Source: Candidatus Nanopusillus sp.
GTDB lineage: Archaea; Nanobdellota; Nanobdellia; Nanobdellales; Nanobdellaceae
Direction: 5' to 3'
Assembly: GCA_036845085.1 (NCBI GenBank)
Contig: DAIUEN010000001.1
Coordinates: 3,173 to 35,172, forward strand
Length of the DNA stretch: 32,000 bases
The position numbers and the translations under genes were made by a program. This document shows, piece after piece, positions 1 through 31,740 of this stretch (positions within the stretch are counted from its first letter, which is position 1; each line of letters starts with the position of its first letter). Below the pieces are notes generated by a model. That model searched no databases. It saw only the letters and a list, made by a program, of their open reading frames with translations, and was not told the DNA's origin.

Positions 1-686
1 ACTGTAATTTCTTGTCTAGATATCCTTAAGTTCATATTAGGTTTGTCATTTCTTATCATATATACAGAAGCAACTAAGTTTGCTGCAGCATTGGCCCAAC
101 AATTTCCACATATCCCTTGATTTTGAACTGGTGGTAAATAATTTTTTCCATTTACATTACCCCAAAAAAATCTTTTTTGTCCATTGTATTCAAATAAACA
201 TCCTTCTTTATTCATTTGATTATTGTTATTATTTTCGTTATTATTTTCATTGTTACTTTCTTTTTCTTCTGTACTTTCGTTTCCAATTATATTAAATATG
301 TCTACTAGTGGTTGGGGTGTAGAAACGTTAATTATTATGTAAGGTGGATTTATATAAAAGTTTATTTCTTTTCCTTCTTTATTAATTAAGGAAACATTTT
401 CTGGCAATATAATTGAGAAATTTTTACCATAATACTCAAAAATTAGACTATTATTTTCTTTATATACTAATACACCTTCTGGAATATTTAATAATATAAT
501 ATAGTTGTACGGAAAGGAATACATTGCATATACCAAATCTTGTAAGTTGTTTAAATAATTTTGAAATAAAATATATTCTTGTTGTTTTTTTGTATTATAA
601 CTATATGAAAAATATATCATTAAAGCCAATCCAACAATTAATAATAATATACCAACGTTTAATATATTTAATTGAGATCTATTCAT
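1..686 (-). CDS. Partial CDS (3' end beyond window): N-terminal pilin-like/TM anchor, unknown domain, Asn/Glu-rich linker, then start of a papain-family (C1) cysteine peptidase domain
   Basis: Manual translation of the minus strand from ATG at 686..684, with no stop to position 1: MNRSQLNILNVGILLLIVGLALMIYF...SNNENNNENNNNNQMNKEGCLFEYNGQKRFFWGNVNGKNYLPPVQNQGICGNCWANAAANLVASVYMIRND. QGICGNCWA matches the C1 active-site signature Q-G-x-C-G-S-C-W-A (catalytic Cys codon 99..101). Absent from the ORF track because it is truncated. Lies 24 nt downstream of, and co-oriented with, the 711..1169 gene. Confidence 0.7.
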   Translation of the reverse strand, partial: MNRSQLNILNVGILLLIVGLALMIYFSYSYNTKKQQEYILFQNYLNNLQDLVYAMYSFPYNYIILLNIPEGVLVYKENNSLIFEYYGKNFSIILPENVSLINKEGKEINFYINPPYIIINVSTPQPLVDIFNIIGNESTEEKESNNENNNENNNNNQMNKEGCLFEYNGQKRFFWGNVNGKNYLPPVQNQGICGNCWANAAANLVASVYMIRNDKPNMNLRISRQEIT

Positions 687-710
687 AATGAAAATATAAT
701 TAAAAAGTTT

Positions 711-1169
711 TTAAGTCTTTATGGGTAATAACGTTATTGTCACCGTATCTGGTTTTGTTTTTTCAATCAATAGGTTTAGTATTTGATAATCTTTTCCATA
801 AAAAGCGTAATAATATGTTCCGTTTTTATAGTATTTTAATGTTTTATCTTCAGAGTTTATTTCTATTTTACAAGTAGACTTGTATGTATGATTTTTGTTA
901 TAATTTCCATAATTTATAGAACATATCAATTCATAGTCTCTAGATAAAACAAAATTCAAATATTTATATGCATAAAAGTCATAATATATTTTAGTTTCGT
1001 TAATAGAATAGCAAACTCTTTCTATATATTTATATAATATTTGACATTGATTTATTTGTTCATATAAATTCTTAGTTTGGGTATTTATATTTAGAAATTT
1101 ATAATATAGTCCTAAAGATATTGCAAATATGGCAATTCCAATACCTATCCAAAGCCATTTATCCATCAT
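711..1169 (-). CDS. Small membrane-anchored/secreted protein, possible minor pilin-like subunit
   Basis: 152-aa ORF. N-terminal hydrophobic helix MMDKWLWIGIGIAIFAISLGLYY, 4 Cys, N-x-S/T sequons (NET, NHT, NGT). ATGA overlap with the upstream gene at 1166-1169. No recognisable family. Confidence 0.55.
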   Translation of the reverse strand: MMDKWLWIGIGIAIFAISLGLYYKFLNINTQTKNLYEQINQCQILYKYIERVCYSINETKIYYDFYAYKYLNFVLSRDYELICSINYGNYNKNHTYKSTCKIEINSEDKTLKYYKNGTYYYAFYGKDYQILNLLIEKTKPDTVTITLLPIKT

Positions 1170-1573
1170 TGTAATTCTAATTCAATATATTGACCATTAT
1201 ATTTGATTATAACAAAACTTTCATCTTTTATTGTAAATGTACATCTTTTCATTACTACATCTGGATTATAGCTTTTTACAAGGTCTAACAATTCATCGCA
1301 GTTTATATCTTCTCCTTTATATTGTACAACATAACAAGTACCAATCTTTTTTTGATTATAGCATGAAATAATATTTAGGGCTAATGTATTTGGATTATCT
1401 ACATTTCTTTGTACATTTACATCGGCAGTATTATTTTTATTAAACATTGTGTCTATATAACTAGAAGCATTTGTTTTAAATTTTACTATTAAACCGATTA
1501 GCGTTGCTGTTACAATTAGTCCCATAATTATTAAAAAAGTATATTTTATAGGATCTTGACTTTTCATTGCCAT
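1166..1573 (-). CDS. Small pilin-like protein with putative class III signal peptide
   Basis: 135-aa ORF with N-terminus MAMKSQDPIKYTFLIIMGLIVTATLIGLIV (K-S then Q, followed by a ~20-aa hydrophobic helix) and 4 Cys. Starting at Met3 (1567) would give an ATGA overlap with the upstream stop, like the other junctions in this operon. Confidence 0.55.
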   Translation of the reverse strand: MAMKSQDPIKYTFLIIMGLIVTATLIGLIVKFKTNASSYIDTMFNKNNTADVNVQRNVDNPNTLALNIISCYNQKKIGTCYVVQYKGEDINCDELLDLVKSYNPDVVMKRCTFTIKDESFVIIKYNGQYIELELQ

Positions 1574-2049
1574 AATATTATTTTACTTTCATTGTATATT
1601 ATAAATATACTTCTCATTGGATAAAATTCATTGCTATTATTTGAGGAATAAAAGTCTAATCTATCAGGATTAAATTGAGAATACTTATTTACATATTCTT
1701 TTATTTCGTTAAAGTTTATTATTGTATCACTATTGCTTATATAAAAGTCATAACACAATGAAAATAATAAATCTGAACCGTAATATTTGTTATAGCAACT
1801 AACAATTAAACCAGTTATAATCTTTAGTATTTCATCTTTATTGGAGGAATTTATTTTTATTTTTTCTGTATTTGGATAATAATCTTTACATTCTGGAGAA
1901 AATGCTTTTTGGGTGGCTAGCTGACTACAATAATAGTTTTGAGATTTACTTAAGAATAAAGTATAAATCATATATATTAATGTTGCAATTGAAAATAATG
2001 CTATTATTAGTATAAATATTTGATCAATAGTTAAATCACTTCTTTTCAT
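1564..2049 (-). CDS. Small pilin-like protein with putative class III signal peptide
   Basis: 161-aa ORF with N-terminus MKRSDLTIDQIFILIIALFSIATLIYMIYTLF (KRS then D, followed by a hydrophobic helix). 4 Cys, sequons (NSS, NNS, NES). ATGA overlap at 2046-2049. Confidence 0.55.
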   Translation of the reverse strand: MKRSDLTIDQIFILIIALFSIATLIYMIYTLFLSKSQNYYCSQLATQKAFSPECKDYYPNTEKIKINSSNKDEILKIITGLIVSCYNKYYGSDLLFSLCYDFYISNSDTIINFNEIKEYVNKYSQFNPDRLDFYSSNNSNEFYPMRSIFIIYNESKIILWQ

Positions 2050-2330
2050 TTGTAAGTAATATTACCTTGATATATATAAATTATTCTGTATCCTTCTGGT
2101 ATTTCAATTCCATTTATAGTACAATTACCCCTAAGATAACCTTTTTTTTGAACGACTCTATAATAACTTTCATTATAATATCTATATATATCAATACAAG
2201 TTATAATAGATTCTTCTTTTTCTTCTGTTAAATTCTTAATTTTACTCAGATAATAGAAAGAAAATATAGCTCCTATTAATATTAATATAAAGGATAAAGT
2301 GATCCAGTAATAGTTATATTGATTTTTCAT
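2046..2330 (-). CDS. Small membrane-anchored protein, possible minor pilin-like subunit
   Basis: 94-aa ORF. N-terminal hydrophobic helix YWITLSFILILIGAIFSFYYL, 2 Cys, sequons (NLT, NES, NCT, NIT). ATGA overlap with the platform gene at 2327-2330. Confidence 0.5.
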   Translation of the reverse strand: MKNQYNYYWITLSFILILIGAIFSFYYLSKIKNLTEEKEESIITCIDIYRYYNESYYRVVQKKGYLRGNCTINGIEIPEGYRIIYIYQGNITYK

Positions 2331-4297
2331 ATTTGGAAAGACGTTGGTATATATGGGCCAAATATTGTATTTACGGCTATTAAACCAAGAGTGGAAAATA
2401 TTACATAGAATATTGTACCAACTATTAAGTTTCTTCCTATATAATAATATATCATTGTTTCATCGAATCCGTATTTAATACCTGCTGTGAAAAAAGAGGT
2501 TATTATTACAAATTCTATGAAAAATATACCAATTATTGCTTGGAAATATGATGGGGGAATTAAATTAGCTAAATTAAATGTTGAAATTATTAATTGAGAT
2601 AAATCTGCAGCCCCCGATAGACCAAAAGCTGCGCTAATGGTCTGGAAAAAATACGCTATTGCAAATAGCATAGATATTATTGCACTATTAAATATTGTTA
2701 CTAAAGAAGACATAAATGGTACTATACTTTTTGATACATTATCTAATAACCCTATAACTTCATCTAACATTCTTCTTACCTGAATTCTTATATCTACAAC
2801 TTGCTCTAAATTCTTAGATACGTTATAACATATTTGAGATAAAACTTTAGGTCCTTTATTTGTGGAATATATAATTAGCTGTAATGTTTCATAAATAATT
2901 TTGGAAGGATAATAATTAATAGATCCATAATTTTTGTCGAATATTGATTGTATTAGATTTAATCCTTTCCTTAAATTAAATATTGTGAGCTTTAAAAAAT
3001 TTTCTAATATTCCTGAAAGTTTTATAATCTTATAATTTTGATATGTTTTTTCTAATACTATTTCCATTGGATATCCATCTTCTAATAATGATGCAAACTC
3101 GTATACTATAACAGGGAATTCAAATTCCATTTCTTCTATTTCATTAGCTCTTTTAACCTTTTGGAAGGAATTTAAATAAAAATAAGATCCTATAGATAAT
3201 CCAATACCTAATGGTAGAGTTAGCATTATTAATGCATTTATTACAGATCTATCTTGAAAAATAAAGTTAAGATAAGTGGATAGAGCTCCTTCTGGAATAT
3301 AAAGTAATTTTATTGATATTTGTGCTAAATGATATATTGCAGGAATTGATAATGTAGCAAATAATATTATGAAAGGAAAGATTGATACTTCTTTATTTCC
3401 AATTTTAACTCTATTCTTTTTTGGTAAGTCTTTAGCTAATGAGAGATCTGGAGTTGAAAATGCGAATGGATTTTGAGATAATAAATTTTGTATAACTAAA
3501 AAAGTTAATATTGGTAAGATAATTATATATCCAAATGCTATAAAGTAAAAACTAACATTATTTAAAAGGAATACCGACATTATTGGTAGCATAAGTATAC
3601 TAACAATTGGCAAAACAATTAAAAAAGAAGTTATAGCAACAGCAGGCTGTTTTAGTTTTTCTACATATTCATACGATTTTTGGTAAGCTTTTTTTAGTAT
3701 CCAAGATAATAATCTATCTAATAGCGCATTTATTTCTTCCTCAGTTCTTCTATATTTTATATTTAATAAGTGAGACATTATATATACAAAATCTGGTGAT
3801 AAATAGAACCATCTTATTGCATAATATTCTAAAGCTTCTTCTAATATTCTAAATCTTTTGTTTTCTAAATCATATAATAATTTTTTAAAATCTGTTGCTA
3901 TGATACCTTTCATATAATATGCTACGTATTGTATTGCTTTTTCTAAATTTGGATTTCTCTTTAAATATAAAACTAAGTATAAAGTAACCCACACAGATTC
4001 TGAAGTTGCAGCAATTTTTACTATTTTTGTATAAAATATGGGAAAATATGCTAAATAAAAATCTATGATTAATAATGCAATTAGTAAAGAAAAAGCAAAT
4101 TGAAAAGAAATAAGTGATAATATAAAATATAATATAAAAGATAATATTAATAGAAATAAAACTGATGAAAAAATATTTGTAGAAGTAGTTTCTAGTTTAT
4201 TTAACCATAAATTAAAATTATAAATTTTTTTAAGTTTTCCGGGAGGGTCTATTTTAAATAAAGAAAAAGTATTATAAAAAAATTCAAAAAAATTCAT
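2327..4297 (-). CDS. Polytopic membrane platform protein of the type IV pilus/archaellum family (FlaJ/ArlJ/TadC-like, two T2SS-F domains)
   Basis: 656 aa with many TM segments and two soluble helical regions resembling T2SS-F domains: NLEKAIQYVAYYMKGIIATDFKKLLYDLENKRFRILEEALEYYAIRW...EKLKQPAVAITSFLIVLPIV and YPMEIVLEKTYQNYK...LRKGLNLIQSIF...KGPKVLSQICYNVSKNLEQVVDIRIQVRRMLDEV. Surrounded by pilin-like genes. Assignment is by pattern recognition, not a search. Confidence 0.65.
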   Translation of the reverse strand: MNFFEFFYNTFSLFKIDPPGKLKKIYNFNLWLNKLETTSTNIFSSVLFLLILSFILYFILSLISFQFAFSLLIALLIIDFYLAYFPIFYTKIVKIAATSESVWVTLYLVLYLKRNPNLEKAIQYVAYYMKGIIATDFKKLLYDLENKRFRILEEALEYYAIRWFYLSPDFVYIMSHLLNIKYRRTEEEINALLDRLLSWILKKAYQKSYEYVEKLKQPAVAITSFLIVLPIVSILMLPIMSVFLLNNVSFYFIAFGYIIILPILTFLVIQNLLSQNPFAFSTPDLSLAKDLPKKNRVKIGNKEVSIFPFIILFATLSIPAIYHLAQISIKLLYIPEGALSTYLNFIFQDRSVINALIMLTLPLGIGLSIGSYFYLNSFQKVKRANEIEEMEFEFPVIVYEFASLLEDGYPMEIVLEKTYQNYKIIKLSGILENFLKLTIFNLRKGLNLIQSIFDKNYGSINYYPSKIIYETLQLIIYSTNKGPKVLSQICYNVSKNLEQVVDIRIQVRRMLDEVIGLLDNVSKSIVPFMSSLVTIFNSAIISMLFAIAYFFQTISAAFGLSGAADLSQLIISTFNLANLIPPSYFQAIIGIFFIEFVIITSFFTAGIKYGFDETMIYYYIGRNLIVGTIFYVIFSTLGLIAVNTIFGPYIPTSFQI

Positions 4298-4306
4298 TAT
4301 CTAAAT

Positions 4307-5086
4307 TTACGAAGTTCTTTTTGCACCACCAGAATAAGAATTTAATATATGTTCTGGAATATGAGTTAATACATCACATAGAGGCAGAATATTTACATCC
4401 CCAGTAAATCCTAATTCTTTACATTCTCCACTTGCTTCTACATTTAGACTTCTTGTTTCGTCATCTATGACTATATTGAATTCTACTCCGTCACATTTTG
4501 TTGTACTATAATAGTTTAGTACGTTCTTAATTGCTTTAAATATTTGATTTTCTATCCAAGTAGGTATTCTACCACCACATGATCTTTGAGGTCCAGGATT
4601 TAATATTTTTGAAGGATTTGAGAATGAAATAGATATAGAATTTTCTCCAAATTCTATATTAGAATATTGACCAAATACTTCTTTTGTAGCTTTATCTGGA
4701 TCAAAATTTAAATCAAATATATAGTATTTACACATTATTTGCATACAGTAAACTGGAGTCAAAGAATATCCTTTATAAGAACAGGCTGTATCTCTTCCAT
4801 ATTGTTGCATTACAACAGAACATGGTACAGAATCTGCACAAACGTAATAACCACTTGTTAGCTCTGTAAATCCTCTTCCAATTGCTACATATCTTTGACA
4901 AAATTCTACTGGACTGTTACATACTTCAGAACATGTAGAAACAGCTTGTTGTATTTCTGTATTAGCTATAGTACCTACTTTTGAGGCTTGCTGTGAAAAC
5001 ATTCTTAATGCAATTACTACTATTACTAACATTACAATTATTATAAATACTAATTGTATAGCCATGTCTAATGCTCTTTTCCTCAT
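4307..5086 (-). CDS. Cys-rich type IV pilin-like protein (putative class III signal peptide), first gene of the operon
   Basis: 259 aa with N-terminus MRKRALDMAIQLVFIIIVMLVIVVIALRMF. The R-A then L junction followed by a ~22-aa hydrophobic helix fits the archaeal prepilin peptidase motif [KR][GA][LIFQ]. 12 Cys in the mature part. Confidence 0.6.
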   Translation of the reverse strand: MRKRALDMAIQLVFIIIVMLVIVVIALRMFSQQASKVGTIANTEIQQAVSTCSEVCNSPVEFCQRYVAIGRGFTELTSGYYVCADSVPCSVVMQQYGRDTACSYKGYSLTPVYCMQIMCKYYIFDLNFDPDKATKEVFGQYSNIEFGENSISISFSNPSKILNPGPQRSCGGRIPTWIENQIFKAIKNVLNYYSTTKCDGVEFNIVIDDETRSLNVEASGECKELGFTGDVNILPLCDVLTHIPEHILNSYSGGAKRTS

Positions 5087-5107
5087 AACAATACTAGAGG
5101 TTTCGAA

Positions 5108-5120
5108 TCTTATAAACTTT
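5108..5120 (-). promoter_or_regulatory. Candidate TATA box for the pilus-like operon
   Basis: The minus strand reads AAAGTTTATAAGA, with the TTTATAA core about 24-31 nt upstream of the ATG at 5086. This spacing fits a leaderless archaeal transcript. The background is AT-rich, so specificity is low. Confidence 0.3.
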
Positions 5121-5140
5121 ATATATTGTGAATTTATAAA

Positions 5141-13877: not shown

Positions 13878-14153
13878 ATGGTCTCGTTTGATGATATAAA
13901 AAGAATGATTAATATGGAGAAAAATAGAGTAATATTAGGAACAAATATGACTATAAAAATGATTAAAAATGGAAAAGTTGAAAAAGTATTTTTAGCAAAA
14001 AATGCTCCTGAAGAAATTAAGAGAGATATATTATACTATTCAAAGCTAGGTAATTTTGAAGTAGAGGAACTAAATTATACCAATGAAGAAATAGGGATTA
14101 TATTGAAAAAGCCTTTTAAAATATCTGTTATTTCTATATTAAAAAATGGGTAA
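13878..14153 (+). CDS. rpl30e: 50S ribosomal protein L30e (eL30)
   Basis: 91 aa. [38 protein letters not shown] is typical eL30, in the conserved position after rpoA2. Confidence 0.85.
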
Positions 14154-14648: not shown

Positions 14649-15464
14649 ATGGTCTTTAGCGATACTATCATGGCCTTTGTGTATTATTTTGGATTTTTGG
14701 TAGTATCATTAGTAGTAGCATTGATAGTAGGATTTGTAGCATATAGAGTATTAGATAGAGTATTAGATAGATTAATAGAACCATACTATAATAAGTTTTA
14801 TGAAGAATTAGGAACAAAGAGACCAGTAGATTTTTCAACAACGGTATCTGTAATATTAAGTGTATTATTTGGAGTATTGTCTTTTACTTGGGCATTTAAC
14901 AATTTAATGAGTATAGTATCTTTAGATTATTATACGATATTGACTCCATATATTGAAGTAACTTTAGCTGCAGCTGCTACAATATTTGGAGTTACTGGAG
15001 TAATATTTCTAATATTTGTAGGTACATTCTTTGCACTATTCTTTAGCTGGTACATATATAGGATGGTTTCTCCATATAGAGAAGATGTAGCATCACTACT
15101 AAGATTATTGCTATTCATAGGTTTAGTATATGTTGTTTCTGTATCTTCATTAAGTGCATTAAACCTTGATGATGCAGAAATATTTGGATACATATTGGGA
15201 GCATTTGTAGTATTGTCAATAGGATGGGCAATTATAGAATTTGTTATGGAAAAAGTATCGAATACAAAGTCATTTGAAGAAATAAAACCATTCTTAGAAT
15301 ATTTCCTATTTGGAATCTTTATACTTTCAGCTTTATCCGTTTTAACCTTAGGATATAATGCAATTTCACAATCAACAATAAATATATTTGCCTGGGCCTT
15401 TGTTTTGATATTAGTAATAGCATTGGTACCTTTTGTTATAAAGGCAATAAAATCTATATATTAG
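14649..15464 (+). CDS. Polytopic integral membrane protein of unknown function, inserted between rps12 and rps7
   Basis: 271 aa with about 6 hydrophobic segments and no family motif recognised. Flanked by AT-rich promoter-like and T-run sequences. Confidence 0.6.
   Translation: MVFSDTIMAFVYYFGFLVVSLVVALIVGFVAYRVLDRVLDRLIEPYYNKFYEELGTKRPVDFSTTVSVILSVLFGVLSFTWAFNNLMSIVSLDYYTILTPYIEVTLAAAATIFGVTGVIFLIFVGTFFALFFSWYIYRMVSPYREDVASLLRLLLFIGLVYVVSVSSLSALNLDDAEIFGYILGAFVVLSIGWAIIEFVMEKVSNTKSFEEIKPFLEYFLFGIFILSALSVLTLGYNAISQSTINIFAWAFVLILVIALVPFVIKAIKSIY
14745..14768 (+). repeat. Perfect 12-bp tandem duplication inside the membrane-protein gene
   Basis: AGAGTATTAGAT occurs twice in tandem (14745-14756 and 14757-14768), encoding RVLD-RVLD. 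Confidence 0.9.
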
Positions 15465-16112: not shown

Positions 16113-16943
16113 TTATTCAAATACTTTTTTGTATATATCTTTTAGTTGTGTTGGGACAACATGAGTATATACCTGTGTAATACTCAATGATGAGTGACCC
16201 AATAATTCTTGTATAAATCTAATATCAACACCTTTTGACAGTAAAGTTGTAGCTAAAGAATGTCTAAGAACGTGTGGAGTTACTTTTTTATTTATACCAG
16301 CTTTAATGGTAGCGTTTTTTATTATTCTTTCTACTTGTCTAGTTGATAGCGGAAATATTCTATCACTATTAGTTTCTTTAATATATTCTCTTAATTCATT
16401 TAATAGAAAGCTTGGTATTGGAACAATTCTTTCTTTTCCACCTTTTCCATATATCTTTACAAAACCATCAGTCCAGATTATATCACTCTTTTTTATATTG
16501 ACTAATTCGCTTACTCGGACTCCGGTATAAAATAAAAACTTTATAATTAATCTATCTCTTTTATTATCTACAGCTTCTAATAATCTATTAAATTCTTCTA
16601 AAGTTATAAATTTAGGCAATTTTTTATCAACTTTTGGTGCTTTTATTTGTTTTGCTAATTGCTCATTATCTAAAAATTTTAAAAAAGAAGATATAGCTCT
16701 GACGTATAATCTTAAAGAATTATAATCTAGGTTTTTGTTTACTTTTATATTTGCAAGAAATTTGAATATCAAATTTCTGTTCATATATGTTTGTAATACG
16801 TACATATCTATTTCGTTTGCTTTTAGCTCATTTTTTAGGAAATCTAAAAGCTTTTTTATTACAATAGAATATGTTTTTATTGTATTTTTTGATTTACCCT
16901 GAAGTTCTAACCATACTTTGTATTGATCTAAGATATTATCCAT
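16113..16943 (-). CDS. xerA: Tyrosine recombinase, XerA/XerC/XerD-like
   Basis: TGVRVSEL, HVLRHSLATTLL and LLGHSSLSITQVYTHV supply the R...HxxR...H...Y catalytic set, and the N-terminal SAM-like domain is YKVWLELQGKSKNTIKTYS. The ORF extends to 17012, but Met24 (16943) fits family length and leaves a TATA-like AAAAATATAAATATT upstream. Confidence 0.85.
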   Translation of the reverse strand: MDNILDQYKVWLELQGKSKNTIKTYSIVIKKLLDFLKNELKANEIDMYVLQTYMNRNLIFKFLANIKVNKNLDYNSLRLYVRAISSFLKFLDNEQLAKQIKAPKVDKKLPKFITLEEFNRLLEAVDNKRDRLIIKFLFYTGVRVSELVNIKKSDIIWTDGFVKIYGKGGKERIVPIPSFLLNELREYIKETNSDRIFPLSTRQVERIIKNATIKAGINKKVTPHVLRHSLATTLLSKGVDIRFIQELLGHSSLSITQVYTHVVPTQLKDIYKKVFE

Positions 16944-16998
16944 TGTTATAATGGAATACTTTAGAATATTTATATTTTTCTCTAAATAGAATATATTA

Positions 16999-17051
16999 TC
17001 CCCACATGCCATGCACTAGGGATAATATGAACTAGTTCCTCCATGTGGGGA
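16999..17051. repeat. GC-rich inverted repeat (10-bp stem, 33-nt loop) spanning the stop codon of the nucleotidyltransferase gene
   Basis: TCCCCACATG (16999-17008) pairs perfectly with CATGTGGGGA (17042-17051). An inner ACTAG/CTAGT pairing is possible (17015-17019 with 17032-17036). The region is visibly GC-richer than its surroundings. Confidence 0.85.
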
Positions 17052-17714
17052 ACAAAAATGAAGATGTTGGCTTGAAGCTGAAGAGTGATGAATACGGCTA
17101 CTCAGATAATTAAATAACCCGCAAATATATTCTTTAGCAGTTTTAGCATGTTTTTTATATTTATTAGAATATTTTTCAAATATGTTTGATAATAATTCTT
17201 CATTAATTCCATGTTTCATTGCTAAAGTAAGTAATGTAAATACATCCATCAGATCTTTTTCTTCTTTTCTATTTAAATATGTAAATATTTTATCAACTAA
17301 TAGCCATTCTAATCTAGCAACCCTCACTTTGATTTTTCTTTTTCCAATTTTTATTTCTAAGTCTTCGTATGGTATTTCTTCATTACTAAATAATATACTT
17401 ACTTTAGGACCATTTTCGTAAATTATTTCTATACCATCTTTTCCAAAAATTTTACGTTCTATTATTTTCTTTATGTCATTAATTCTATATACTATAGATT
17501 TAATATATATTATATCTTTTTCTTTTGCCAATAAGTCAATATCCTCTGTTTTTCTATATTTTATAACATCAAGTCCTGCATCTATTAAATATACCGCTAC
17601 AGCCATTCCGCCCATTAGTATTGGTTTTTTATCATCATCAAATGACTTTAATATATCATCTAAGACTTTTATAGTTCTAGCTTCTGTTAGCGAATAAGTA
17701 TATTTATTTGGCAT
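17016..17714 (-). CDS. Nucleotidyltransferase-fold protein (AbiEii/DUF2204-like)
   Basis: MGGMAVAVYL...RKTEDIDLL fits the G-G/S...D-x-D minimal NTase motif. VARLEWLLVDKIFTYLNRKEEKDLMDVFTLL resembles the C-terminal R/K-D...D motif of AbiEii-type proteins. The last ~30 aa (SSRIHHSSASSQHLHFCSPHGGTSSYYP) are compositionally atypical and overlap the GC-rich element. Confidence 0.5.
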   Translation of the reverse strand: MPNKYTYSLTEARTIKVLDDILKSFDDDKKPILMGGMAVAVYLIDAGLDVIKYRKTEDIDLLAKEKDIIYIKSIVYRINDIKKIIERKIFGKDGIEIIYENGPKVSILFSNEEIPYEDLEIKIGKRKIKVRVARLEWLLVDKIFTYLNRKEEKDLMDVFTLLTLAMKHGINEELLSNIFEKYSNKYKKHAKTAKEYICGLFNYLSSRIHHSSASSQHLHFCSPHGGTSSYYP

Positions 17715-25493: not shown

Positions 25494-25943
25494 CTATTTT
25501 TTAATATTATTTAGTTCTTTTATCTTTTCTAGTGCCCTTTCTGCATGTTCTTCAGGACTTTTCAAAGATTTTAATATATCAACTATATCTAAATCTTTAT
25601 TTATTATATATGTTATTCTAGCAGCTCCTTTACCTCTATCACTTTTTGCATTAAATAAATTAATAATCTTTAGATCTGGATCGGCAATTAAGGGAAATTT
25701 TGCTCCATATTTTTCTGCAAATTTTTTCTGAGTTTCTATATTATCATGAGATACACCTATTATTTCTGTATTATATTTTTTAAATTCTTCATATAATTCT
25801 ACAAATCTCTTTAATTCTCTTGTACAACCACTAGTAAAAGATTTTGGATAAAAGTATATTACTATAAAATCTTTCTCCTTTAATATATTACTTAAATTAA
25901 TTTTACCCATAGTGCTTTCTGCTTCGAAATCTTTTATCTTCAT
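25494..25943 (-). CDS. bcp: Thiol peroxidase, Bcp-type peroxiredoxin
   Basis: 149 aa. FIVIYFYPKSFTSGCTRELKRF matches the Bcp motif YFYPKxxTxGCTxE. Confidence 0.85.
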   Translation of the reverse strand: MKIKDFEAESTMGKINLSNILKEKDFIVIYFYPKSFTSGCTRELKRFVELYEEFKKYNTEIIGVSHDNIETQKKFAEKYGAKFPLIADPDLKIINLFNAKSDRGKGAARITYIINKDLDIVDILKSLKSPEEHAERALEKIKELNNIKK

Positions 25944-25993
25944 ACTAAAAAGATTTTGACAAATTTTAAAAAATATAACTATGTTATATATTA

Positions 25994-26608
25994 ATGGTGT
26001 TTATAGAGAGAAAGCCCATGTATTTTAAAAAAGAAAAGCCAGAGTTGTTTAGAATGAATGGGATTTCTCCTAGGACTGTAGAAGAGCATTTAAAACTTTA
26101 TGAAGGATATGTAGCTAAATTTAATGAAATTATGAAGAAAATAGAAGAATTATCTAATGAAGAATTAGAAAAAGCTAATCCAACATATTCTTTAATAAGA
26201 TCTCTAAAAGTTGAAATGACAAGGTCTTATGGAGGAATTATAAATCATGAAATATATTTCGGACATTTGGGTGGAAATGGTGGAAAGCCTGGGGGGAAAT
26301 TAATGGATCAAATAGAAAAAGATTTTGGATCTTACGATAGATTTTTAAAAGAATTGAAAGCTACTGCTATGGCTGCTAGGGGTTGGGCTTGGGTATTATG
26401 GTCTTATGATTTAGAAAGATTAATGATATCTATAGGAGATGAGCAAAATACATATATGTTTCAAAATAGTAGGATAATATTGGCTATCGATATGTTCGAA
26501 CATGCATACTTTATAGATTATGGAGTAAACAGAAAAGGATATATAGAAGCTTTCTTTAATAATTTAGACTGGAGTATTGTGGAGAAGAACTTTGATAAAA
26601 TAAGGTAA
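25994..26608 (+). CDS. sod: Superoxide dismutase, Fe/Mn family
   Basis: 204 aa. Ligand positions are present: EEH...YV, GGIINHEIYF and DMFEHAYFIDY (consensus DxWEHAYY). The start could be Met9. Confidence 0.85.
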   Translation: MVFIERKPMYFKKEKPELFRMNGISPRTVEEHLKLYEGYVAKFNEIMKKIEELSNEELEKANPTYSLIRSLKVEMTRSYGGIINHEIYFGHLGGNGGKPGGKLMDQIEKDFGSYDRFLKELKATAMAARGWAWVLWSYDLERLMISIGDEQNTYMFQNSRIILAIDMFEHAYFIDYGVNRKGYIEAFFNNLDWSIVEKNFDKIR

Positions 26609-26609
26609 G

Positions 26610-27110
26610 TTATATATTAATAAATTTTTTAGTTTTTTCATATTCCAATAATTTTTCTTTAAATTTTCTTCCTAATGGTGTATAATTAGATATATCATTT
26701 TCTTTAACAATTCTATGGCATGGAATTAAAATTATAAAAGGATTATTTCTTATAGCATTTAATATTTCTATCATACTATATTTTTTATTCAATTTATGAT
26801 ATAGCTGCTTATAGGTAATAGTTGCTCCATAAGGAATCTCTAATATTTTTTCATATACTTCTTTATATCTATATATATTTAATTCTATGTTAAATTTTTC
26901 TTTATTGTTTAATATTTTAACTATTTTTTCCATAAAAAATCTATCTATATTTTCATCAAAAATAAGATCTCCATTTATTCTATGAAATTTTGCAATTTTT
27001 TCCAGATTTTTTATCAATATATCAATATTTTCATTTAAAGAATAAGCCAAAATTTTACCACTAGCTATTATATATCCGGAATATAATTCGTAATCAAAAA
27101 TTTTTATCAT
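26610..27110 (-). CDS. ogt: Methylated-DNA--protein-cysteine methyltransferase (Ogt/MGMT)
   Basis: 166 aa. IPYGATITYKQL and the active-site motif IPCHRIV, followed by Y..LG. Confidence 0.85.
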   Translation of the reverse strand: MIKIFDYELYSGYIIASGKILAYSLNENIDILIKNLEKIAKFHRINGDLIFDENIDRFFMEKIVKILNNKEKFNIELNIYRYKEVYEKILEIPYGATITYKQLYHKLNKKYSMIEILNAIRNNPFIILIPCHRIVKENDISNYTPLGRKFKEKLLEYEKTKKFINI

Positions 27111-27307
27111 AAATTTATATTATAAAAAAAGTTTATATTATCCAAATATTAATTAAATTTTATGGGTTGCAAAAGAAAAAGAAAAAATGCAAATAATTAA
27201 AAAAGATTTTGGCAGCTCTGGCTAAATATAAAAATTTTATTTTATTTTTTAAATATTTTTTCGAATCTGAACGTTATCTTTATAAAGGTAATATAAAAAA
27301 TTATTAT

Positions 27308-27997
27308 ATGGACGCCGAATTTTATGAAGAACCTTTAAGAATTGGAAGCAAATTTCCAGAAATAGAAGTAGAAACGACTCATGGAAAGATAAAGCTACCA
27401 GATCATTACAAAGGAAAATGGTTTATATTATTTAGCCATCCAGCAGATTTTACTCCAGTATGTACTACAGAATTTGTAGAGTTTGCTAGGATGTATAATA
27501 AATTTAAAGAAATAGGAGTAGAATTAATAGGTTTATCTATAGATCAAACATTTTCGCATATAAAATGGATAGAATGGATAAAAGAGAAGTTAGGAGTGGA
27601 TATTCCATTTCCAATAATTGCTGATCACATTGGAACATTAGCAGACTTGTTAGGAATGTTGCCTGAAAATGGATCTACATCTACAGTAAGGGCTGTATTT
27701 GTTGTTGATCCTAATGGAGTAATAAGAGCTATTATATATTATCCAATAGAAGTTGGTAGAAATATTACAGAAATATATAGGTTAGTATTAGCATTACAAA
27801 CCTCAGATAAGTACAAAGTAGCATTACCGGCAAATTGGAATGTAGATAAATTAGAGTGGAAATCTTCATCATTAGTAGGAAATAAAGTTATACTACCACC
27901 TCCAAGAACTATTGAAAAAAAGAAAGAAATAGAAGAAAAAGCAAAGAAGAAAGAAGTAGAAATGTATGATTGGTGGTTTGTTTTCAAAGATTTATAA
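27308..27997 (+). CDS. Peroxiredoxin, Prx6-like (apparently 1-Cys)
   Basis: [19 protein letters not shown] is the peroxidatic-Cys motif, and no C-terminal resolving Cys is seen. The ORF track begins at a TTG (27209). ATG at 27308 ([13 protein letters not shown]...) gives the usual ~229-aa length. Confidence 0.88.
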
Positions 27998-29758: not shown

Positions 29759-31084
29759 ATGAATATTATAACAGTTTTTTCTTACATAACTTTGGTAATA
29801 ATATTTATACAGCTACTAATTTCTATGTATACATTAATATTTATTTTAAATTATAAAAAGAAAATAGAAGATATAGAAATCAAGGAATATCCAAGGGTTT
29901 CTATAATAGTTCCAGCATATAATGAAGAAGATAATATATCTGATACGTTAGAAAGATTGTCTGAACTAAATTATCCAAAAGATAAATTGGAAATAATTGT
30001 AGTAGATGACGGATCTAAGGATAATACATATAATATAGCTAAAGAATTTGAAAGGAAATATAATTTCATTAAAGTATTCAGAAAAGAAAATGGTGGAAAA
30101 GCTTCAGCATTGAATTATGGGATAAAGAAAAGCACTGGAGAATATATAGTAACTTTAGATGCAGATTCTTATCCAAAGAAAGATGTCCTAATAGAAATGA
30201 TAAAATATTTTTATATAGATCCGGATGTTTCAATTGTAGTACCATCTATACAGACAAAAGATGTAGATACAATTATAAGGAAATATCAATATGTAGACTA
30301 TGCTATATACAATTTTTCTAGGTTAGTATTAGATCAGCTAGATTCTATATATATAGTACCAGGTCCATTTTCTATATTTAAGAGAGAAGTATTTGAAAAA
30401 ATAGGATATTTTGATGAAAAAAATATTACTGAAGATATGGAAATTGCTTTAAGGGCTAGAGCACATAATTTGAAAATAAAGTATTGTCCAAATGCAATTG
30501 TTTATACTATTACTCCAAAGACCTTTAAATCTTTATTCAAACAAAGAGTTAGATGGTATTTAGGATTTATAGATAATTATTTAAATTATAGAAATAAAAT
30601 AAAAAATGAATTTTTATCTGAAGTTGCTTTGGGAATTGCAATTTTATTGAAAATTATAATACCAGTTGCTTTAGTTGTAGCTGTATATGCGTCTATTTAT
30701 AATTTCTACCAGCATTTTATGTTTTTATATGTATCAAATTTCGATTTATATACCATATATGTAAAATCTTTTATGCTTTCTGATTTTTCCAAATTTATAG
30801 AAGATATTAGATTTACTATTATTAGGCAATTTTATCTTTTTTTATTTACTTTCTTAATGTTTTCTATGTTTTTGTTGTTTATTTTAATATATAGAAGGTA
30901 TGAAAAAGACCATAAATTTTCCAATGTTTTACTTTATATATTTATCTATTTACTATTTTCTTTATATCTTAATGGAATATTTATTTTATCTTCACTATAT
31001 TATAAAATATTTGGATCTGAATTAAGATGGGGTGGAATTACCTGGAGAAATAGTCTTATAAATAGATTAAGAAATATTACATGA
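29759..31084 (+). CDS. Membrane-embedded processive family-2 glycosyltransferase (PgaC/IcaA/NodC/cellulose-synthase-like)
   Basis: 441 aa. N-terminal TM, then VSIIVPAYNEE, VVDDGSKD, GGKASALNYG, TLDADS, ITEDMEIA and QRVRWYLG (the D, D, D, QxxRW signature), followed by about 4 C-terminal TM helices. Confidence 0.85.
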   Translation: MNIITVFSYITLVIIFIQLLISMYTLIFILNYKKKIEDIEIKEYPRVSIIVPAYNEEDNISDTLERLSELNYPKDKLEIIVVDDGSKDNTYNIAKEFERKYNFIKVFRKENGGKASALNYGIKKSTGEYIVTLDADSYPKKDVLIEMIKYFYIDPDVSIVVPSIQTKDVDTIIRKYQYVDYAIYNFSRLVLDQLDSIYIVPGPFSIFKREVFEKIGYFDEKNITEDMEIALRARAHNLKIKYCPNAIVYTITPKTFKSLFKQRVRWYLGFIDNYLNYRNKIKNEFLSEVALGIAILLKIIIPVALVVAVYASIYNFYQHFMFLYVSNFDLYTIYVKSFMLSDFSKFIEDIRFTIIRQFYLFLFTFLMFSMFLLFILIYRRYEKDHKFSNVLLYIFIYLLFSLYLNGIFILSSLYYKIFGSELRWGGITWRNSLINRLRNIT

Positions 31085-31740
31085 TGGATAATAGATCTAT
31101 AATAAAATTAGCAGTAATACTTTCTGTTTTATCCTTTTCCCTTGGAGTTATGATAGGATATTCTATATATAATCATATATTAAATAAAGTATTTGAAGAT
31201 ACAAATCAAATAGATTCTTTAGTAACTTCAGCATATTTATTTTCTTTATCTAAAAATATGACGTGTGAAAAAGAATATGAAGATTTTTTAAGATATTTAA
31301 AAGAAAAAATCGCAATAGTTGGTAGGAAATTGACATATTTAGAAAGCCCAGAAAATGTATTTTATAATAAAGAAGGTGTTGAACATATAAAATCACAATA
31401 CTTTAATATACAGTATCTTCATTTTATTATGATGAATAATTATATTAAATCTTGTAACGTATCCAATTTTACTTTAATATTATATTTTTATAATAATGAT
31501 TATTGTTATGAAGAATGTAATAAACAAGGAGGAGTTTTAACAACATTATATTTGAGACATTATTATGATTTATACATATATTCTTTTGATAGTTCATATC
31601 AGAATTATTTTATACAATATTACAATGAAAAATATAATATTACAACATGGCCTTACATTATATTAATTAAGTCTGATAAAGAATATCTATTTAAAGGATT
31701 CACAGATTTAGAAACATTAGAAAAATATATGACTACTTGA
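31081..31740 (+). CDS. Membrane-anchored protein with possible thioredoxin-like domain (CYEEC motif)
   Basis: 219 aa. N-terminal TM (IIKLAVILSVLSFSLGVMIGYSIY). The C-terminal part reads FTLILYFYNNDYCYEECNKQGG...TTWPYIILIKSDKEYLFKGFTDLETLEKYM, which resembles a strand / C-x-x-x-C helix ... x-P strand ... helix Trx layout. ATGA overlap with the GT2 gene. Confidence 0.45.
   Translation: MMDNRSIIKLAVILSVLSFSLGVMIGYSIYNHILNKVFEDTNQIDSLVTSAYLFSLSKNMTCEKEYEDFLRYLKEKIAIVGRKLTYLESPENVFYNKEGVEHIKSQYFNIQYLHFIMMNNYIKSCNVSNFTLILYFYNNDYCYEECNKQGGVLTTLYLRHYYDLYIYSFDSSYQNYFIQYYNEKYNITTWPYIILIKSDKEYLFKGFTDLETLEKYMTT

Follow-up and report, generated by a model that had tools for sequence, protein, structure and literature searches.

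Type IV filaments are already known from DPANN archaea and from Nanoarchaeota, and a likely role in host attachment has been proposed for them. In Nanoarchaeota, two type IV pilus (T4P) systems and an archaellum were reported together with four FlaJ/TadC homologues (Jarett et al. 2018, PMC6142677), and the high density of non-synonymous single-nucleotide polymorphisms in nanoarchaeal T4P components was read as host adaptation (PMC6142677). The supplement of a census of archaeal type IV filaments lists five secretion ATPases in the nanoarchaeote Nst1 and two in N. equitans (PMC4858521), and one nanoarchaeal ATPase clade is without identified cognate pilins (PMC4858521). Such censuses require an ATPase in the locus (PMC4858521), and would not pick up the operon layout that we describe here. 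The respective operon is located at the left end of a 32,000-nucleotide (nt) stretch of DNA from Candidatus Nanopusillus sp. (contig DAIUEN010000001.1, positions 3,173 to 35,172), which is referred to as the window, and its seven genes within the window encode a polytopic membrane protein of 656 amino acids (aa) and six proteins with an N-terminal hydrophobic helix. In an original prediction, which was made from the sequence of this stretch, the genes had been interpreted as an ATPase-less type IV pilus-like operon. From our analysis we conclude that they probably encode a derived type IV filament system, in which the platform and the subunits are encoded in one operon and the ATPase, as well as any peptidase, would be provided in trans (probability of about 0.62). 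The operon bears on the question of how ectosymbionts among the DPANN archaea, Nanoarchaeota included, recognise their host cells, bind to them and open a connection.

The 656-aa protein had been predicted to be FlaJ/TadC-like, and the check set for this claim, a direct match to PF00482 (T2SSF), failed, since the protein has no Pfam or NCBIfam match even at E ≤ 1, PF00482 included. However, the claim itself stood when relatives, fold and genomic context were considered. A profile built from 18 relatives retrieved a family of at least 1446 clusters at 50% identity (E ≤ 1e-3), and 17 of 32 full-length members, a sample of the best family matches, were matched by PF00482 with a best E of 1e-15. 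Weak PF00482 matches were also found in five of the 18 close and medium relatives of the 656-aa protein, and the family profile searched against the PDB reached the cytoplasmic domain of EpsF at E values of 0.04-0.19 only. The AlphaFold (AF2) model of the protein, which was based on an 18-sequence alignment, has a predicted local distance difference test score (pLDDT) of 85.4 and a predicted TM-score (pTM) of 0.84. A Foldseek search of this model against the PDB returned the cytoplasmic domains of EpsF (2vmb, 3c1q) and OutF (5nbg) with probabilities of 0.95-1.00 and target TM-scores of 0.46-0.69, and all other matches had probabilities of at most 0.28. The best superpositions, with root-mean-square deviations (rmsd) of about 3 Å, were those to 2vmb (probability 1.00, target TM-score 0.67, rmsd 2.9) and 5nbg (probability 0.98, TM-score 0.69), whereas the rmsd for 3c1q (probability 0.95) was 5.5 Å.

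The two helical T2SS-F/FlaJ/TadC-like domains that had been predicted for the 656-aa product were also recovered. An hhalign comparison of residues 60-290 with residues 330-656 aligned 142 columns at an E of 8.6e-5 and a probability of 60%, and the AF2 secondary structure consists of two equivalent helical blocks. With moderate confidence, the protein thus appears to be internally duplicated, each copy comprising transmembrane helices and a cytoplasmic helical domain. Such an internal duplication is typical of PilC, TadC and FlaJ. In addition, the residues that are invariant across the platform family are kept (W163, P230, P238, P262, P277, E391 and E412). Because of the family matches, the fold, the duplication and the ATPase-adjacent relatives described below, we regard the 656-aa protein as a genuine platform protein of the T2SS-F/TadC/FlaJ type, despite the missing direct match to PF00482 and by way of transitive homology. 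All of its homologues with a name in the source records are "hypothetical proteins" there, without a single precomputed Pfam domain among them, so that the protein is probably not among the annotated nanoarchaeal FlaJ/TadC homologues. Annotation based on hidden Markov models (HMMs) misses this divergent end of the platform family, which comprises more than 1400 sequence clusters.

Distant relatives of the platform, which align over the full length with 19-26% identity (E 1e-20 to 1e-50), are found in loci of other DPANN archaea. In four out of four DPANN loci (L003, L005, L007 and L017; one from a Woesearchaeota metagenome-assembled genome (MAG), the others from DPANN assemblies with Pacearchaeota-like adjacent ATPases), a gene for a T2SS-E ATPase of 700-772 aa is located directly upstream of the platform gene, and small proteins with class III signals (KKG/, KRG/, KKA/; the slash marks the putative cleavage site here and below) follow the platform. 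Two of the four loci are closed by a Peptidase_A24 gene. The statement of the original prediction that the operon is of a type that cannot be matched to a described archaeal pilus was too strong, since it appears to be a derived version of a T4P locus that is widespread in Pacearchaeota and Woesearchaeota. As a side observation, L003, L007 and L017 represent canonical DPANN T4P loci with an ATPase of 760-772 aa that has a long N-terminal extension, and ATPases of this type share about 70% identity over more than 100 assemblies. In L003 and L007, a highly basic open reading frame (ORF) of 39-47 aa (KKREKKKHPYK...) lies just ahead of the A24 peptidase gene.

Among the four core components of type IV filaments, namely ATPase, platform, pilin and class III signal peptidase, the ATPase and the peptidase are absent at the level of the Nanopusillus locus. 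No T2SS-E ATPase, KaiC/FlaH, A24 peptidase or archaellin was detected by Pfam among the ORFs of at least 80 aa in the window other than those of the RNA polymerase, and a tblastn search of the window with DPANN ATPases and peptidases found none. This agrees with the predicted absence of a FlaI/PilB/VirB11-type ATPase, FlaH/KaiC, a prepilin peptidase and an archaellin from the window. The term "ATPase-less" describes a real property of the operon, including the orthologous part that continues past the window, and is not an artefact of truncation; it probably does not extend to the organism, as the censuses list several T4P ATPases in nanoarchaeal genomes. An archaellum was considered separately and was ruled out, because the window harbors no archaellin, KaiC/FlaH or FlaI domain.

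In all products of the operon within the window except for the platform, about 20-30 residues near the N-terminus, starting at residue 3-8, form one hydrophobic segment, and no further transmembrane helix follows. These N-termini correspond to what had been predicted, that is, a short charged N-terminus and a hydrophobic helix of about 20 aa. The [KR]-[AS] junctions claimed for four of the products are likewise all present (RKRA/LD, KRS/DL, MKS/QD and NRS/QL), while the 152-aa protein is without such a basic-small junction, and most members conserve a Gln as the first residue behind the putative cleavage site. The Cys counts of the five complete small proteins are even, as claimed (12, 2, 4, 4 and 4 in operon order), and are nearly identical in the orthologues of five other genomes. 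The claim of many N-x-S/T sequons held for most products, each of which contains 2-6 of them, but not for the 259-aa protein, which contains none.

The individual families differ in their conservation. Orthologues of the 259-aa protein share 32-45% identity and 12 Cys (10 in one as called), and in Nanopusillus sp. the N-terminus reads MKRRG/IDMAVQ.... Both Cys of the 94-aa protein are kept in its orthologues (42-54% identity), and the residue preceding the Gln is N, S, L or G. The 161-aa family is paralogous to the 135-aa family (hhalign 85%, 104 columns). For the latter we identified 33 homologues, the named ones all belonging to Nanopusillaceae or related Nanoarchaeota (N. acidilobi, Nanobdella aerobiophila, YN1); most of them keep the leader MA[IM][KR]S/QE[LM]P, and some carry the JGI label "UPF0333 family". 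The 152-aa protein shares 37-45% identity with the N-terminal 142 residues of a 579-aa protein of YN1 and of a 256-aa protein of L009.

Whether these proteins are pilins was addressed by comparison with the canonical DPANN loci. In the 259-aa family the class III site is canonical (RKRA/L here, KRRG/I in Nanopusillus sp.), and the first approximately 95 residues align with a 116-aa pilin of Woesearchaeota (MKKRG/QEL...) at an hhalign probability of 85% (E 6.5e-6, 92 columns), with five Cys in register between the two. The leader MAIKS/QEL of the 135-aa family parallels the woesearchaeal MKKRG/QEL, and an hhalign probability of 68% was obtained for this family against 54-aa DPANN pilins. The 161-aa family displays a weak similarity (51%) to pilins of 315-369 aa from Pacearchaeota-type loci. 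Furthermore, the small genes hold the place of the canonical pilin genes in the related DPANN loci and are translationally coupled to the platform gene. Ordinary Sec signal peptides were ruled out for the small proteins, because their hydrophobic segments of 20-30 residues, which begin at residue 3-8, exceed the length of a Sec signal; true Sec-type signals with C-terminal anchors are encoded by two further operon genes and look different from the N-termini of the small proteins. We therefore call the small proteins pilin-like with moderate confidence, judging from their sequences, with the best support for the 259-aa protein and the weakest for the 152-aa protein. The original designation of six pilin-like proteins was overstated: a canonical site together with an alignment to a canonical pilin is confined to the 259-aa protein, the others have variable residues at position -1, and none of the proteins matches a pilin HMM.

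The seventh product, which had been listed as simply pilin-like, carries in addition a protease domain. It consists of an N-module MNRSQLNILNVGILLLIVGLALMIYF... (MNRS/QLNILNVG...), an Asn-rich linker and then QNQGICGNCWANAAAN. Residues 182-227 match Peptidase_C1 (PF00112) with 27.9 bits at a Pfam cut-off of 20.7 (E 3e-6), and residues 188-197 contain the active-site motif QNQGICGNCW, with the oxyanion-hole Gln and the catalytic Cys in CGxCW. Positions 1-686 represent the 5' part of a gene for roughly 500-530 aa, and the positions of the catalytic His and Asn of the window's own protease lie past the window edge. The full-length orthologues of 502-579 aa match the C1 family at E 5e-11 to 6e-18. 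When the YN1 orthologue was aligned to cathepsin H, the Gln, the Cys, the His (GHA) and the Asn (NQWG) were all in place, and in the L012 orthologue the motifs PHA and NSWG can be read from the sequence of the equivalent region. Judging by these matches, the seventh gene encodes a papain-family (C1) cysteine protease domain that is attached to a pilin-like N-module. No relevant publication on papain-like proteases in Nanoarchaeota was found in a literature search.

Depending on the genome, the C1 domain is joined to one or the other of two pilin-like N-modules. The window, L011/L012 and the two Nanopusillus sp. genomes have it fused to a module that is a separate protein of 141-143 aa in YN1 and L009, while in YN1 its N-module corresponds to the 152-aa protein, which is encoded separately in the window. 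This argues for a modular display of the protease. In the KM4331-08 lineage (L009/L010), the protease domain is deleted except for a remnant of about 30 aa at 13980-14075, as determined by a comparison of L009/L010 13201-14098 with L001 13201-14940.

The conservation of the gene set in related genomes, which had been set as a check of the original prediction, was confirmed, since six Nanopusillaceae genomes contain the block with the same gene order; one of them, that of Nanoarchaeota archaeon YN1 (AP031373), is complete. It follows rpo-RimK-DUF371 and is closed by a convergent arginase gene in the three lineages with an annotated downstream gene. The window edge cuts the operon, so that the window contains the first, promoter-proximal seven of 12 genes (12-14 in the orthologous loci; see Table 1 for the orthologous gene set). 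Its full size is roughly 11-12 kb, and it is specific to hot-spring Nanoarchaeota of the family Nanopusillaceae. The ORFs are intact and the Cys counts almost fully conserved across the genomes. Compared to the proteins of the window, identities amount to 56-64% for the platform, 64-69% for the cytoplasmic DUF371 protein and 32-54% for the small surface proteins. Such a high divergence with kept Cys would be expected if selection were relaxed or diversifying and the proteins were extracellular and stabilised by disulfides.

One of the genes past the window edge encodes a polytopic protein of 388-403 aa (L001 18264-19466; L012 11874-13040; L013 17616-18827; L014 17596-18807), which has no Pfam match and no conserved Cys, but four invariant His (HTRIL..FFxGxH ... 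HG ... H) and a GExLE motif. It could be a cofactor binder or an unrecognised enzyme such as a peptidase or oxidoreductase.

Within the window, seven closely spaced genes of the same direction fill positions 1-5086 of the minus strand. The ORF listing and a direct reading of every junction agree with the predicted arrangement: ATGA start/stop overlaps are present at 2327-2330, which couples the 94-aa gene to the platform gene, at 2046-2049 and at 1166-1169; a fourth one at 1564-1567 holds if the 135-aa ORF starts at Met3; and the intergenic gaps are 9 nt (4298-4306) and 24 nt (687-710). With respect to the alternative starts of the 135-aa ORF, the conserved Gln is preceded in most Nanopusillus orthologues by MA[IM][KR]S, the longer of the two leaders, so that the genes would overlap by 10 nt, whereas the proteins of YN1, KM4331-08 and Nanobdella begin with MK[SNG]Q, which results in an ATGA-type overlap. 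The spacer upstream of the first gene, which has TATA-like elements in a genome of 25% GC, is a possible operon promoter. Pfam assigned the upstream neighbours to DUF371 (E 9e-48) and to the RimK-type ATP-grasp proteins (E 1e-23), in line with the earlier assignment of DUF371 and an ATP-grasp ligase. The features of the operon are compiled in Table 1.

Table 1 Features of the operon within the window and gene set of the orthologous operons in other Nanopusillaceae genomes.
Feature	Position in window	Strand	Characteristics and basis
Pilin-like protein, 259 aa, first gene	4307-5086	-	ORF; N-terminus MRKRA/LDMAIQLVF...; one N-terminal transmembrane helix; 12 Cys
Polytopic membrane platform, 656 aa, divergent member of the T2SS-F/TadC/FlaJ/PilC superfamily	2327-4297	-	PF00482 matches of the family, fold, context of relatives
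Pilin-like protein, 94 aa	2046-2330	-	MKN/QYNYYW...; 2 Cys
Pilin-like protein, 161 aa	1564-2049	-	MKRS/DLTIDQ...; 4 Cys
Pilin-like protein, 135 aa	1166-1573	-	MAMKS/QDPIKYTF...; 4 invariant Cys; start Met1 (1573) or Met3 (1567)
N-terminally anchored protein, 152 aa	711-1169	-	Starts MMDKWLWIGIGI...; 4 Cys
Pilin-like N-module, Asn-rich linker and start of C1 protease, 228+ aa, exits window	1-686	-	Translation; Peptidase_C1 match
AT-rich spacer, 54 nt, between DUF371 and first gene (candidate promoter)	5087-5140	-	TTTATAA-type TATA-like elements about 25-50 nt upstream of ATG
Orthologous operon, genes 1-7			Cys-rich protein of about 250 aa, 656-aa platform, proteins of about 94, 160, 135 and 150 aa, C1 fusion of 502-579 aa
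Orthologous operon, gene 8			Sec-type protein of about 274 aa, 14 Cys
Orthologous operon, gene 9			Pilin-like protein, 484-552 aa
Orthologous operon, gene 10			Polytopic protein, 388-403 aa
Orthologous operon, gene 11			Pilin-like protein, 409-439 aa, 22-26 Cys
Orthologous operon, gene 12			Pilin-like protein of about 215 aa

How could such an operon have arisen and function? The ancestor of the derived type IV filament system was probably a DPANN T4P locus with genes for an ATPase, a platform, about 10 pilins and, in the Pacearchaeota type, a peptidase, and the Nanopusillaceae locus would since have come to be without the ATPase and peptidase genes. The remaining set comprises the 656-aa platform and about 10 putatively secreted proteins, each of them with a basic leader of 2-5 residues, a hydrophobic helix of 20-30 residues and a putative Cys-paired extracellular domain. 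The genes, which overlap and are thereby translationally coupled, would be co-transcribed, and the pilin-like proteins would enter the membrane by their N-terminal helix. The platform, presumably energised in trans by a T2SS-E/FlaI-family ATPase encoded elsewhere, would then extract the subunits from the membrane and polymerise them into a short pilus or a pseudopilus-like surface structure. This structure might display the C1 protease fusion as well as the large Cys-rich downstream proteins (412-552 aa), and could thus serve host cell envelope contact and possibly local proteolysis. Judged by its gene content, the operon is a plausible host-contact apparatus, and obvious uses in an obligate ectosymbiont would be host recognition, adhesion and envelope remodelling.

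Several observations weigh against this interpretation. First, the link of the small proteins to pilins rests largely on the N-terminal helix region, since hhalign found no similarity to canonical DPANN pilins at a probability of at least 40% when the first 38 residues were masked. The search with pilin N-terminal models, by which the pilin nature of the small proteins was to be checked, was negative for all six of them in Pfam and NCBIfam at E ≤ 1 (e.g. PF07790, PF04021, TIGR02537); only Flp1_like (PF16982) gave sub-threshold matches, to five of 22 members of the 135-aa family (best E 0.003). The 259-aa protein has no match in Pfam, NCBIfam or the sequences of the PDB, and a sequence search of the PDB with the 135-aa protein did not retrieve a meaningful match either. 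A pilin fold was not recovered for the 135-aa protein, the one of the six small proteins for which the structure was modelled. Its AF2 model (pLDDT 80.5) comprises a 37-residue helix (8-44), a linker of low confidence and an alpha/beta domain (53-135, pLDDT of about 95), and Foldseek found neither a solved pilin nor any other PDB entry at a probability above 0.13. Outside the 259-aa family, the residue at position -1 is S, N, L, G, T, V or I and thus mostly not G or A. Known archaeal prepilin peptidases (PibD/FlaK) prefer G or A at this position.

Second, ATPase and peptidase genes were not found in the vicinity, as the six Nanopusillaceae loci contain no T2SS-E ATPase or A24 peptidase gene within ±10 kb. 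A profile search with the DPANN ATPases did not reveal a Nanopusillaceae entry among the 120 matches listed; these are of near-identical length, share 67-92% identity with the query and are, in the few cases with a name, from Pacearchaeota or from unclassified "Nanoarchaeota" or "archaeon" MAGs. Likewise, no recognisable prepilin peptidase was reported for two nanoarchaea (PMC4858521). Third, the deletion of the protease domain in L009/L010 indicates that the protease is not essential to the system.

The operon might alternatively encode a bindosome-like or pseudopilus-like scaffold, which would hold or release the protease and the Cys-rich proteins for nutrient scavenging, i.e. to obtain peptides from the host or the environment, rather than for attachment. 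Non-pilin domains, that is, the C1 protease and the large downstream proteins, carry a pilin-like N-terminus, which mirrors the sugar-binding proteins with class III signals of Sulfolobus that depend on BasEF (PMC3047682; bioRxiv 10.64898/2026.04.22.720090). There are many different small subunits without an obvious single major pilin, and Nanoarchaeota rely on their hosts for most metabolites. However, neither a substrate-binding-protein domain nor an ABC transporter is encoded in or near the operon, and the protease is dispensable in one lineage (L009/L010). Although we consider such a scavenging device rather unlikely, it cannot be separated from an adhesive pilus by sequence alone.

A further possibility, which we consider unlikely and somewhat more speculative, is a host-contact organelle with a platform that is uncoupled from a dedicated ATPase and from the canonical peptidase. 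The leaders would remain unprocessed or would be cut by an unrecognised enzyme, for which the 388-403-aa four-His protein is a candidate, and the papain-like protease on its pilin stalk would locally digest the S-layer of the host, thereby making a cell-cell junction. If so, the pilus-delivered protease would represent an entry tool of an archaeal ectoparasite.

The lack of ATPase and peptidase genes in the operon in six out of six genomes, the drift of the leaders from the canonical [KR][GA] site, the divergence of the platform to the point of escaping PF00482 and the loss of the protease domain in one lineage could also indicate a decaying relic, in which the platform and pilin genes would have become non-functional or neo-functionalised after the loss of ATPase and peptidase, without forming a filament. 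However, the 12 ORFs are intact and the start/stop overlaps are kept in six genomes, although the platforms are only 56-64% identical to that of the window. The Cys counts have also hardly changed, few proteins of the block are as well conserved as the platform, and the family-wide invariant residues of the platform are retained. Moreover, a functionless segment of about 11 kb (about 1.5%) would be unlikely to persist in genomes of 0.6-0.8 Mb, and we thus consider decay very improbable. Finally, an operon unrelated to type IV filaments, with a transporter or another membrane protein as the 656-aa product and with small proteins that are Sec-inserted type II anchors or secreted, is hardly credible: although the platform of the window has no direct PF00482 match and the small proteins match neither a pilin model nor a pilin fold, the transitive PF00482 homology, the EpsF/OutF fold at probabilities of 0.95-1.0, the strict adjacency of the relatives to T2SS-E ATPases and canonical pilins, and the hydrophobic segments of 20-30 residues, which are too long for Sec and differ from the true Sec signals in two other operon genes, all speak against it, and a transporter operon in particular was ruled out by the fold and genomic context evidence.

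The window has a GC content of about 25%, and its remainder is archaeal in content, with split rpoB genes, rpoA'/A'', ribosomal proteins, FtsZ and Spt5; orthologues served to recognise the genes of the RNA polymerase subunits. A 271-aa polytopic ORF without a Pfam match (14649-15464, plus strand) is located between the genes for the ribosomal proteins S12 and S7, and is rich in Val, Ala and Leu, whereas its neighbours are rich in Ile, Lys, Asn and Tyr. Between the S7 gene and the L10/L1/L11 ribosomal cluster, a gene for a tyrosine recombinase (Phage_integrase, E 4e-42) adjoins one for an AbiEii-type nucleotidyltransferase toxin (E 1e-10) (16113-17714, minus strand), and this pair may have been inserted as a small mobile or defence element. 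Positions 25494-27997 hold an antioxidant cluster that fits an oxygen-exposed habitat: it encodes two peroxiredoxins (AhpC/TSA) and an Fe/Mn superoxide dismutase, and the gene for an O6-methylguanine DNA methyltransferase lies between them. A family 2 glycosyltransferase (E 1e-39; 29759-31084, plus strand), which may be relevant to the glycosylation of surface proteins, is followed by a 219-aa protein (31081-31740) with an N-terminal transmembrane helix and no Pfam match.

What is new in this locus is a platform subfamily that escapes annotation, a conserved operon of platform and pilin-like genes without ATPase and peptidase genes, minimal non-canonical leaders, and the fusion of a pilin-like module to a papain-type protease. 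The operon thereby provides a concrete and conserved set of candidates, that is, an unannotated platform, about 10 pilin-like proteins that evolve faster than the platform, and a papain-like protease that is putatively tethered to the cell surface. Co-cultures that carry the operon are available for Nanopusillus acidilobi, Nanobdella aerobiophila and strain YN1; the main text of the Nanopusillus acidilobi paper contains no statement on pili or proteases.

Compared to known systems, the operon differs from the accounts of nanoarchaeal FlaJ/TadC homologues (Jarett et al. 2018; Makarova et al. 2016), in which an operon with a protease fusion is not described. It resembles the bindosome of Sulfolobus solfataricus (BasEF/BasABC) in that a platform and small pilin-like proteins serve non-pilin proteins with class III-type signals (PMC3047682; bioRxiv 10.64898/2026.04.22.720090). 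However, the Bas system has its own ATPase (BasE), and its clients are sugar-binding proteins that are encoded elsewhere together with ABC transporters, whereas the putative clients here, the protease and the Cys-rich proteins, are encoded in the operon, and neither the operon nor the window contains an ATPase of this kind, a substrate-binding-protein domain or an ABC transporter, so that the resemblance is one of functional logic only. The 11-gene Epd system of Methanococcus maripaludis likewise forms a long single unit with many pilin-like genes, some of which have adhesin-like domains (bioRxiv 10.64898/2026.04.22.720090), and shares with most members described here the Gln at position +1 after the putative cleavage site. 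In contrast to the present operon, Epd is served by a peptidase of its own and is classed in System 1, of which an ATPase is part (bioRxiv 10.64898/2026.04.22.720090), and the two are likened by description and not by homology. A functional C-terminal domain on a pilin-type module is also known from bacterial modular pilins such as PilB of Streptococcus sanguinis, which combines a pilin with a vWA adhesin module (PMC8179133); the protein described here is archaeal and carries a papain-like protease instead of an adhesin, and its incorporation into a filament is predicted. The T4P loci of other DPANN archaea share with the operon the platform family and, after the platform, a series of small proteins that begin with a basic leader and a hydrophobic helix, and the 116-aa pilin of one such locus is probably homologous to the 259-aa protein. 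They differ in their upstream ATPase genes and, in the Pacearchaeota type, their terminal peptidase genes, which are absent here, where a gene for a Cys-rich pilin-like protein is found upstream of the platform instead, and the leaders of the Nanopusillus proteins have 2-5 residues and a non-canonical position -1, with several of the "pilins" being large and modular and one of them a protease.

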